Positions 15,144-17,081 of a stretch of DNA of 22,962 nt are shown here, piece after piece. Within the stretch, counting starts at the first letter, position 1, and each line of letters opens with the position of its first letter. The translations under genes and the position numbers were made by a program. The notes beneath the pieces were generated by a model, which had not been told where the DNA came from, did no database searches, and was given only the letters and a program-made list of their open reading frames with translations. The DNA comes from a virus (Duplodnaviria; Heunggongvirae; Uroviricota; Caudoviricetes). The stretch lies in IMG/VR virus record IMGVR_UViG_2645727945_000010; one strand, 5' to 3'.

Positions 15144-17081
15144 TCAGCCGCCGGACGCACTGCCGTAGTTCACTCCGGTGATCACCGCCACCGCCGCAGT
15201 ACGGCGACGACGCCAGTTGATCCAGCGCTCCGCACGGATGGCCACGCTGCCTGTCTGGAACATGGAAACCAGCTCCACCGGGGACGGCGTAGTACTGTCG
15301 CCGCCCGGCTCAGACTGCATCTCCAGTGACGCTTCACGGGACATATCCACCGCCACACCGCCGTCATCAGCCAGATAAATATCCGGCGCATTCACCAGCA
15401 CCAGCTGGTCACCCACGTACTGGGAGACAATCACCGGCAGGCCCTGGAAGGTGCCGCCAAGCAGGGTCATGTCCGGGTATTCCTTCTGACCCAGCGCATT
15501 TTTACGCATGGACAGCGCCAGGGCATTCGTGCTGGACATCAGCCAGACAGCACCAGTGGGCTGCAGATTTGCCGTCACAAACTGGCCAAACGCGGCCTCG
15601 GCATCCGCATCCGGGTTACCGGTTGATGCCGTGCCCTTCACATCATGGGTGATGGACGCCGGGGAGACATCCGCCACCGCCGCTTTTTTCGGGTCCACAA
15701 AGTCTGTATCCAGACGCGCCACTACCGCTTCCGCCAGCGCATTACGGACCAGTGCATCAGCAGCAGGACTGGAAAAACGGATCAATTCTTCCGTCAGTAC
15801 CGCAATGGCCGACACTTTCGCATGACTGAAGGTGATGGATTCAAAATCAAACTTCGTCAGGGGTTTTGCCTTACCCTCACCCACCCAGCCGGCAGCACCG
15901 CCGGACACCTGGGCGTGCACACGGATATTGAACGGCACCTGACGAAGTGCAGGGATCCCGCCCTGACCAAATCGCCCGATAATGGTCTGCGGACGCAGGT
16001 AATCAATAAAGTCCTGTGCGTATTCCTGATATTCAGACAGGCTGCCTGCCCACTGCGGATCCGTGGTGGTCCCCGCGCCCACTGCCGATTTCAGGACATG
16101 ATGCAGACGACTGTCATCCGGATACTGACGACGGGCCACTTCCAGGGCTTCAGATCGGACGCCTTTAGCCGCAGCCAGCGATTTGGCAAAGCGGGCGAAG
16201 CCAATCCCCTTCTCCAGTTTCTGCTCCACACGGATCACCGGCGCTGAAGCCACCGCGGCCACATTCCCGTTACCGGCCTGTTTCACCGGCTGCGCCGTGG
16301 CGGCCTTACCGGCTTCCAGTTCACGCAGGCGCTTCAGGTGCGCATCCACCTGACGGATTTCCGCTGCGGTGTTGTCGTAATGCTCTTCCTCCTCCACATC
16401 CAGCGTGCGCCCTTCCTCTGCGGCTTTGGTCATGACCTCCTCAAGGGAGGCTGCCAGCGCTGCACGCTTGTTTTCAAAACTTTTAATCTGTTCGCCAATA
16501 TTCATTATGGTCTTTTCCTTATGAAAAACGGTTGTTGACTGTGCCGCAGCGCCGGCAGAAGATGCGATTTTCACCACCGGTTTCCGGTTGCCGGACGCGG
16601 CAGAAAACGGGCGGTCGAAAGATTTAATGGTCCGGATGGTGCATTCCGCATTCGCGGGCACGGTGACGGCAGACACCTCCATCAGTTCCCAGCGCAGAAA
16701 ATGCAGTCCGCCTCCGTCCAGAAAGGTGTATTCATGGGGACGGAAGCCCACGGACAGCCCCCTGACCAGCCCGGTCTTAATGGCCGCCCAGACCTCATCC
16801 AGCCGGGCTGCCATCTGGGAGGGCATCCCCGGCTCCGGCTTCACCAGCATTGCCGTGATTTCCAGCCCTTCCCTGACCCGACGCACCGTACACTGACCTA
16901 CAGGGCGGGAATGGTCATGCTGCCAGAGAAACGGGATCGTACTGCCAAACTCCGCCCCCTCCGGCTCCAGGATGTCACCATCCCGATCCGGAGAAGGCGT
17001 TGACGCAATCCCGGTGATCACCCGTTCATCCTCACTGAAGGATTTCACCGTCAGCAGGGAACAGGCCCGTTTAAGAGTCAC
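15144..17081 (-). CDS. Prohead protease - scaffold (delta-domain-like) - HK97-fold major capsid protein in one reading frame
   Basis: 645-aa ORF, GTG start with AGGAGG RBS. N-terminus is HK97 gp4 (S78)-like protease (FLWQHD, VGFRPHEY, TVPANAECTI); the middle is a charged coiled coil; the C-terminus is HK97-type capsid-like. An internal in-frame ATG at 16505 with an AAGGA RBS precedes the coiled-coil segment. Confidence 0.85.
   Translation of the reverse strand: MTLKRACSLLTVKSFSEDERVITGIASTPSPDRDGDILEPEGAEFGSTIPFLWQHDHSRPVGQCTVRRVREGLEITAMLVKPEPGMPSQMAARLDEVWAAIKTGLVRGLSVGFRPHEYTFLDGGGLHFLRWELMEVSAVTVPANAECTIRTIKSFDRPFSAASGNRKPVVKIASSAGAAAQSTTVFHKEKTIMNIGEQIKSFENKRAALAASLEEVMTKAAEEGRTLDVEEEEHYDNTAAEIRQVDAHLKRLRELEAGKAATAQPVKQAGNGNVAAVASAPVIRVEQKLEKGIGFARFAKSLAAAKGVRSEALEVARRQYPDDSRLHHVLKSAVGAGTTTDPQWAGSLSEYQEYAQDFIDYLRPQTIIGRFGQGGIPALRQVPFNIRVHAQVSGGAAGWVGEGKAKPLTKFDFESITFSHAKVSAIAVLTEELIRFSSPAADALVRNALAEAVVARLDTDFVDPKKAAVADVSPASITHDVKGTASTGNPDADAEAAFGQFVTANLQPTGAVWLMSSTNALALSMRKNALGQKEYPDMTLLGGTFQGLPVIVSQYVGDQLVLVNAPDIYLADDGGVAVDMSREASLEMQSEPGGDSTTPSPVELVSMFQTGSVAIRAERWINWRRRRTAAVAVITGVNYGSASGG

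Follow-up and report, generated by a model that had tools for sequence, protein, structure and literature searches.

One gene for protease, scaffold and capsid in Stx-type lambdoid prophages, with a conserved candidate internal start at the capsid junction

Introduction

IMG/VR virus record IMGVR_UViG_2645727945_000010, a stretch of 22,962 nt referred to here as the window, represents the late genes, with the head region, of a lambdoid E. coli prophage that belongs to the Stx1a/Stx2c-converting type. On its minus strand lies a single open reading frame (ORF) whose product of 645 amino acids (aa), 69.2 kDa, joins a prohead protease, a helical scaffold segment and an HK97-fold capsid protein. 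The question raised by this locus is whether such a gene gives only the full-length fusion, or also a second protein that starts inside the frame, at the protease-capsid junction, and corresponds to the capsid precursor. Comparative evidence from sequences strongly favours two products, and the gene is interpreted here, with a probability of roughly three in four, as a nested dual-initiation head-assembly gene with co-terminal products of 69 and 48 kDa.

The fusion itself is already known, as it is annotated in Stx phages, has its own PHROG family and has been named by NCBI and JGI. The segments of the gene and its initiation regions are as follows, in window coordinates.

15144-17081, minus strand: fusion ORF, 645 aa
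17079-17091, minus strand: upstream initiation region; GGAGG at 17091-17087, 5-nt spacer, GTG start at 17081-17079
16656-17081, minus strand: protease domain, residues 1-142 (Peptidase S78 / HK97 gp4 type); PF04586, BLASTP match to gp4, and a confident beta-rich domain in the AlphaFold2 model
16506-16655, minus strand: linker, residues 143-192; disordered (AlphaFold2 predicted local distance difference test score, pLDDT, <50), gappy alignment columns, variable in length and sequence
16539-16601, minus strand: two small-residue motifs of the linker, AASG and PG(A/V)SG, residues 161-181; kept across 150 distant homologues
16503-16520, minus strand: internal initiation region; AAGGA at 16520-16516, 10-nt spacer, ATG (Met193) at 16505-16503
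16469-16528, minus strand: trough, rich in A+T and weak in structure, with the internal start at its centre
16284-16505, minus strand: delta (scaffolding) segment, residues 193-266; acidic two-helix hairpin, isoelectric point 4.85
16206-16283, minus strand: variable disordered segment, residues 267-292; AlphaFold2 pLDDT <50 for residues 267-285, and variable in the alignment
15144-16205 (stop included), minus strand: capsid body, residues 293-645, 37.4 kDa; N-terminal helices followed by the HK97-fold P and A domains

Architecture of the fusion protein

A reading of this DNA made from the letters alone (the sequence-only reading) had placed an HK97 gp4-like protease, a charged coiled coil and an HK97-fold capsid domain in one frame. 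This architecture is borne out by Pfam, NCBIfam, AlphaFold2 and Foldseek, and the identity of the N-terminal domain as a protease was upheld when it was aligned with its relatives. PHROG 617 ("major head protein") matches residues 1-639 on profile positions 7-626 of 626 (expectation value E=8e-260), and the AlphaFold2 model of the fusion has a mean pLDDT of 80.6. PHROG 4523 gives a weak, partial match, and the score for NCBIfam NF045541 ("prohead protease/major capsid protein fusion protein") is 53.9 bits against a cutoff of 525, so that the protein is not a member of that family. Homologues start at query residues 1-5, matching the GTG at 17081, which has a Shine-Dalgarno (SD) duplex of -10.3 kcal/mol. 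An out-of-frame ATG-TGA start-stop pair (17083-17078, minus strand) overlaps this GTG and shares its GGAGG; it might compete with initiation of the full-length fusion and lower it.

Pfam PF04586 (Peptidase_S78) matches residues 48-152 with 33.6 bits, above the cutoff of 21, and the NCBIfam equivalog TIGR01543 (HK97 protease) scores 45.3, below its cutoff of 59. Judged by these profiles, the protein is a Peptidase S78 member at the Pfam level and not an equivalog of HK97 gp4. In BLASTP the N-terminal 192 residues are 30% identical to HK97 gp4 (E=2e-9), with His55 opposite gp4 His65 and Ser110 opposite gp4 Ser114, the catalytic residues of gp4. Both His55 and Ser110 are invariant in 41 sequences, i.e., the window protein and 40 relatives at 36-53% identity. 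A Foldseek search with the whole model returned capsid matches only, and the protease fold is assigned here from sequence.

The delta segment is modelled with high confidence as helices at residues 195-222 and 229-262. Positions 199-264 of the family profile match the EcCI2 capsid protein (9gyi_B) at its N-terminal residues 4-69, and the helical hairpin is thus read as a scaffold segment of delta type, standing at the N-terminus of a capsid protein. Between the protease and the capsid body there is no further ORF, hence no separate scaffold gene at that place, and the segment that stands there is helical. The disordered residues 267-292 that follow are, by analogy with HK97 gp5, the likely region of maturation cleavage.

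In the capsid body, Pfam PF05065 (Phage_capsid) matches residues 386-635 with 54.2 bits (cutoff 24.2). NCBIfam TIGR01554 (major_cap_HK97) spans residues 204-584 with 79.1 bits (cutoff 27.5), and its model position 3 already falls on residue 204. The AlphaFold2 model shows a helical N-terminal region and then the HK97 fold over residues 293-635, the HK97 fold itself occupying 387-635. The best Foldseek matches are the capsid proteins of Bxb1 (E=1e-13), D3 and HK97 (E ~1e-9, template modelling score up to 0.76 on the target), those of T5 and the gene transfer agent are also returned, and profile matches in the PDB are 9d9w, 8gta and 5tjt. A BLASTP comparison of the capsid part with HK97 gp5 was not significant (E=0.31); the relationship is drawn from profiles and structure.

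The gene is at least 96% identical (96-98%) in the records of JLK-2012, Lys8385Vzw and Stx1a/Stx2c phages. The labels in these Stx-phage records are "putative major head protein/prohead proteinase" (JLK-2012), "major capsid protein" and "phage prohead protease", with one product each. Some database homologues are longer, i.e., P0001 (1079 aa), P0003 (784 aa), and P0123 and P0130 (~1090 aa). These carry TerL or portal Pfam domains beside the protease-capsid part, and may be gene-calling or frameshift artefacts or real bigger fusions.

The internal start in the window

The sequence-only reading had also pointed to an in-frame ATG with an AAGGA ribosome-binding site at the start of the coiled coil. 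The ATG is present as Met193, and the first scaffold helix begins two residues after it. The product predicted from this start has the proposed length of 453 aa and a mass of 48.2 kDa.

The G+C content of the 60-nt stretch around this ATG (16528-16469) is 0.27, the minimum of the ORF, where the mean is 0.60 (standard deviation 0.07) and the next-lowest value 0.42. Predicted RNA structure in the same stretch is the weakest of the sampled ORF windows (-5.8 kcal/mol versus a mean of -18.6). Folding of 141 nt around the internal start gave a z-score of -1.4, which is non-significant; the informative quantity is how weak the local structure is compared with the remainder of the ORF.

Conservation of the junction start in fused homologues

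When 1.84 billion cluster representatives were searched exhaustively with HMMER, 12,586 hits were obtained at E<=1e-3 (50%-identity clusters). The best 150 representatives (38-56% identity) are overwhelmingly fused proteins of ~630-680 aa. Their linker is gappy, and most of the fused ones have a Met just before (K/N)-T-I-A-E-Q-I; where this Met is missing, most have Val or Leu in its place. Among 120 close Enterobacterales homologues, a Met precedes N-I-A-E-Q-I-K-S-F in 119, behind a variable linker with K-G or K-E codons.

The fusion locus was found in 527 viral contigs by a single-protein scan, and the loci recovered were all 96-100% identical. As this set is too uniform for tests of divergence, an alignment-based scan of genome contigs was used instead. 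The resulting DNA set holds 81 loci, i.e., 80 species-level genomes and the window. They come from Gamma-, Alpha- and Betaproteobacteria and from metagenome-assembled genomes (MAGs) labelled Flavobacteriaceae, Clostridia, Mycobacterium, Vicinamibacterales, Phycisphaerae and Lentisphaerae; 63 of the loci are fused and 18 split.

A start codon stands at the junction in 57 of the 58 fused ORFs that could be aligned (53 ATG, 2 GTG and 2 TTG), 4-8 codons ahead of the conserved Glu of the I-A-E-Q-I motif. The mean energy of the anti-SD duplex at these fused junctions is -7.5 kcal/mol, compared with -6.2 at the real capsid starts of split genes. Other in-frame codons and other internal ATGs both average -2.4 kcal/mol (nominal Mann-Whitney p ~1e-24 versus the junction). 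A profile of SD energy along the ORFs shows a sharp peak at the junction, which is the best of ~34 internal NTG candidates in 28 of 57 ORFs and among the top three in 46 of 57. On average the junction SD is at least as strong as that of the 5' start (-7.7 versus -6.8 kcal/mol).

Important is the way in which the SD core is encoded. It is found in 54 of the 57 fused ORFs at a spacing of 5-12 nt (mode 8). Each of the three codon phases is represented, and the dipeptide encoded is accordingly E-G, K-G, G-A, R-K or K-D. Since the motif is read in three phases as differing dipeptides, the constraint is on the nucleotides and not on the amino acids. Predicted structure is also weak at the junction across the loci (-10.3 versus -18.4 kcal/mol, nominal Wilcoxon p=3e-11), and a dip in G+C is seen there too in the 57 fused loci. 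The signal is kept in fused homologues down to 26-45% identity and survives subsampling: 15 representatives less than 50% identical have 14 ATG and one GTG at the junction, with a mean of -6.7 kcal/mol.

Split relatives and the fused/split switch

In Burkholderia phage vB_SBP39 (PV072743) the protease (212 aa) and the capsid protein (444 aa) are separate ORFs, 38-39% identical to the window over both parts. Met1 of its capsid protein aligns with Met193 of the window (MTIAEKIK versus MNIGEQIK), with 38% identity across the capsid part. Likewise, five complete stand-alone capsid proteins (456-478 aa) among the best 150 representatives begin at query residues 193-196, and Met193 falls on residues 1-5 of stand-alone capsid proteins in that search.

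In a tree of the capsid part, split forms appear in at least seven separate places inside fused clades. Of 17 split genomic loci, 9 (L127, L145, L147, L149, L150, L155, L156, L157 and L160) have the protease stop codon and the capsid start overlapping in an ATGA or GTGA, with the junction at ~4580-4620 in most and at 3586 in L127. The split forms are polyphyletic, and their scatter suggests that the lineage has switched repeatedly between a fused and a translationally coupled state. Because the overlap lies at the shared start codon, fused and split forms differ by the reading-frame register around one start. Such a switch of register is viable only if the capsid part already initiates alone, and this supports use of the internal start in the fused genes.

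A proposed scheme of head assembly

Under the two-product reading, ribosomes starting at GTG 17081 would make the 69-kDa protease-linker-delta-capsid protein, and ribosomes starting at ATG 16505 would make the 48-kDa delta-capsid protein, equivalent to an ordinary HK97-type capsid precursor. The upstream site is a GTG with a strong SD that is overlapped by the ATG-TGA pair, and the internal site is an ATG in open context; the short product would be expected in excess over the fusion. As the two products would share the whole scaffold and capsid part, they would co-assemble in the procapsid shell. The N-termini of HK97-type capsid proteins point inward, as in HK97 Prohead I, and the fused protease domains would thus end up inside the procapsid. 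After assembly the Ser/His protease would cut the delta segments, and with them itself, off all subunits. This would leave a mature capsid protein of ~37 kDa in a shell that could then expand and be filled with DNA. How much protease each capsid receives would be set by the ratio of the two initiation sites, and covalent tethering would stand in for a separate capsid-targeting signal.

Alternative explanations

Several points weigh against this scheme. The support for dual initiation is comparative, for this gene as for every fused homologue, and kinship among the sequences means that the p-values quoted above overstate their independence, with the effect kept after subsampling. The fused homologues L094, L108 and L142 show no recognisable SD at the junction. 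In the window the SD (AAGGA) is moderate, at -6.2 kcal/mol with a long 10-nt spacer, and ATG 16505 ranks third among the internal candidates of the ORF, after GTG111 and GTG141. With a moderate SD of its own and stronger SD-like neighbours at other GTGs, the window alone is thus not decisive. By a rough estimate of volume, not a computed one, a procapsid of full-length subunits alone may also fit. GTG111 and GTG141 were rejected as internal starts despite their stronger GGAGG-like motifs, which are attributed to chance of coding. They lie in GC-rich, structured and strongly conserved protease-coding sequence, and a product started there would be a truncated protease.

A further point against internal initiation is that the AASG and PGxSG motifs of the linker, which are candidate self-cleavage sites or capsid-interaction signals, could fit a polyprotein route, the main rival reading. 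All subunits would then be made from GTG 17081 as the 69-kDa fusion and cut by autoproteolysis in the linker, which would release the protease or yield the delta-capsid part, with protease and capsid at 1:1 and the internal ATG and its SD unused. A single uninterrupted ORF with a strong upstream SD is what such a route calls for, the two motifs are kept in an otherwise variable disordered linker, and P2 gpO offers the example of a protease-scaffold protein made full-length and then self-cleaved (cited in bioRxiv 10.64898/2026.09.13.751334). The papers on the fusions of Pseudomonas phage MD8 (PMC8508860) and of Paracoccus prophages (PMC6536676) also describe one gene and one protein, and bring in no internal start. 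However, a polyprotein leaves unexplained why a start codon, an SD in three phases and an AT-rich unstructured patch are found at the junction in lineages 26-50% identical, where the linker varies freely. It also does not explain why the junction SD is at least as strong as that of the 5' start, or why replacements of the junction Met are GTG or TTG in the DNA. Production by the polyprotein route only is considered rather unlikely, and autoproteolysis in the linker could coexist with dual initiation.

The junction signal could instead be the relic of a recent fusion of adjacent genes, with the old capsid ribosome-binding site undecayed and perhaps firing weakly without function. Split relatives do use that start codon, and the site is therefore homologous to a former or alternative gene start. 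A recent origin is nevertheless difficult to reconcile with the dominance of fused forms, which make up 63 of 81 loci and most of the best 150 representatives at 50% identity, and which span Gamma-, Alpha- and Betaproteobacteria and MAGs labelled Flavobacteriaceae, Clostridia, Mycobacterium, Vicinamibacterales and Phycisphaerae. At a median pairwise capsid identity of 45% neutral sites are saturated, and still the signal is retained; in the tree it is the split forms that nest within fused clades. A relic is thus improbable. It should be noted that O157 genomes carry many defective lambdoid prophages, in one of which a frameshift or an assembly error might have joined two genes. Such an artefact or pseudogene is effectively refuted by conservation: the 645-aa architecture is found in a 90%-identity cluster with 9916 member sequences, the module recurs in 92 phage records (at least 80% covered) and the locus in the 527 viral contigs, and the catalytic residues and all domains are intact.

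Comparison with known systems

HK97 gp4/gp5 resemble the window gene in the protease family, the HK97 fold, the helical N-terminal scaffold on the capsid protein, the lack of a separate scaffold gene and the position of the protease directly upstream. In HK97, however, the genes are separate, the protease stop lying 2 nt before the gp5 start, whereas the window has one fused ORF. The HK97 protease is recruited by its own C-terminal tail.

The predicted scheme resembles that of lambda C/Nu3, UL26/UL26.5 of HSV-1 (herpes simplex virus type 1) and gp17/gp17.5 of the archaeal virus HFTV1, in which a long product with an N-terminal protease is made beside an abundant, in-frame, co-terminal short product, and the shared C-terminal part drives co-assembly in the procapsid. 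The window gene has two sequence features of the C/Nu3 type: an N-terminal protease with a C-terminal scaffold, and, where the scaffold begins, an internal in-frame start codon preceded by a ribosome-binding site. The lambda gpC protease is S49/ClpP-like, and HSV uses a separate transcript. The nested product of these three systems is a free scaffold and the capsid gene is separate, whereas the nested product of the window would be the capsid protein with a built-in scaffold. Internal initiation has been shown experimentally in all three, for HFTV1 by Ribo-seq of the nested protease/scaffold start (bioRxiv 10.64898/2026.09.13.751334); in the window it is predicted from sequence.

Other protease-capsid fusions have been described. 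Pseudomonas phage MD8 gp5 (PMC8508860) and the ClpP-gpT fusions of Paracoccus prophages (PMC6536676) combine a ClpP/lambda-gpC-type protease with a Mu gpT-type capsid protein, and represent an independent fusion. A "major capsid and protease fusion protein" is reported for actinobacteriophage clusters AN, AU, AW, EE and EL, with Microbacterium, Arthrobacter and Gordonia phages (PMC7302621), and a protease-capsid fusion for Rhodobacter cluster RcC (PMC8601537). A full-text literature search found no report of an internal start or of two products in protease-capsid fusions, although an earlier remark is possible, and the same search found no virion proteomics for this head type of Stx phages. 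Two candidates from the literature were set aside: the "prohead protease fusion" of a preprint on CBASS is a protease-scaffold protein and does not have the protease-scaffold-capsid architecture, and the "MCP2" of TP901-1 is unrelated.

Significance

Thousands of prophages, enterobacterial and other, have this gene annotated as one "major capsid protein"; the medically important Stx1a- and Stx2c-converting phages are among them. If the internal start is used, such annotations overlook the true capsid precursor, and with it the way in which the dose of protease is set. The nested protease/scaffold strategy of lambda, herpesviruses and an archaeal virus would then extend to protease, scaffold and shell in one frame, and the free interconversion of fused and split gene arrangements would be explained. 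It is fairly likely, from the comparisons above, that a very large prophage lineage delivers its protease as a tethered capsid subunit, with the dose set by two competing ribosome-binding sites, and the capsid protein itself would then be the nested product. This lineage appears to toggle repeatedly between fused and split forms when the register at ATG(A) shifts by one nucleotide. The scheme also points to a natural way of filling HK97-type shells with cargo, which would be fused to the N-terminus at a controlled stoichiometry.

The fusion in itself is ordinary, and dual initiation would strike a specialist as plausible more than as a surprise. A nested product that is the capsid protein itself is a form of the C/Nu3 or UL26/UL26.5 strategy that was not found described in the literature searched.

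Neighbouring genes and gene order

The 5.9-kb module 13500-19400 is matched by 94 phage records at 90-99% identity, among them those of the Escherichia phages JLK-2012 (genus Marienburgvirus) and Lys8385Vzw, along with numerous phages named "Stx1a-converting" or "Stx2c-converting". In 92 phage records, including induced Stx phages, the module is covered to at least 80%. The neighbours of the fusion gene, in order of transcription, are as follows.

19657-20022, minus strand: HNH endonuclease gene, adjoining terS on its upstream side
18803-19366, minus strand: terS
17145-18806, minus strand: terL (large terminase subunit), immediately upstream of the fusion gene; Pfam TerL_ATPase and TerL_nuclease
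17103-17120, minus strand: terminator-like hairpin (GAACCGC-tgcg-GCGGTTT), then a T-run; located past the terL stop and ahead of the fusion gene's ribosome-binding site
14878-15099, minus strand: 73-aa ORF, located after the capsid gene and before the portal gene; matches PHROG 829, a family of unknown function
13568-14932, minus strand: portal protein gene, downstream of the capsid gene; Pfam Phage_portal, E=3e-80
12510-13571, minus strand: 353-aa repeat protein, with its start overlapping the portal stop as ATGA
12187-12513, minus strand: head-tail adaptor

An HNH gene upstream of terS is typical of HK97-like cos-packaging modules. The order of HK97 is terL, portal, protease, capsid, so that its portal precedes the protease, and the window departs from it with terL, fusion, portal. 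The sequence-only reading had called the order of the window unusual, and this is correct against the HK97/lambda canon. Within the lineage, however, it is the rule: the portal gene is downstream of the capsid gene in 74 of 80 related loci, terL is upstream wherever detectable, and phage vB_SBP39 shows the matching order terS, terL, protease, capsid, small ORF, portal, head-tail connector. The arrangement seen in the window is a trait of the lineage and not a local rearrangement.

The 73-aa ORF overlaps the portal start by 55 nt, and a Pfam search with it gave no match. A small ORF is found at the equivalent position in phage vB_SBP39 (L001, 3944-4120) and in JLK-2012.

A scan of the region for promoters and terminators gave a number of sites no higher than in shuffled sequences, which leaves the function of the hairpin at 17103-17120 uncertain. 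It could be a site where the transcript is processed or attenuated ahead of the head genes, which are needed in abundance. The HK97 record likewise annotates a putative terminator directly upstream of the protease gene (L163, 3309-3335).

The 353-aa ORF is called "portal protein" by PHROGs 1289 and 2271 and in the JLK-2012 record; a Pfam search of the ORF found no portal domain. The profile of PHROG 2271 has 859 positions, which suggests that this protein is joined to the portal in some phages. The ORF carries a 162-bp tandem repeat at 12976-13355 (2.3 copies, 88% matches), and the homologue in JLK-2012 has 407 aa; the copy number of the repeat may vary. A weak CBM_5_12-like match lies at the C-terminus of the protein.

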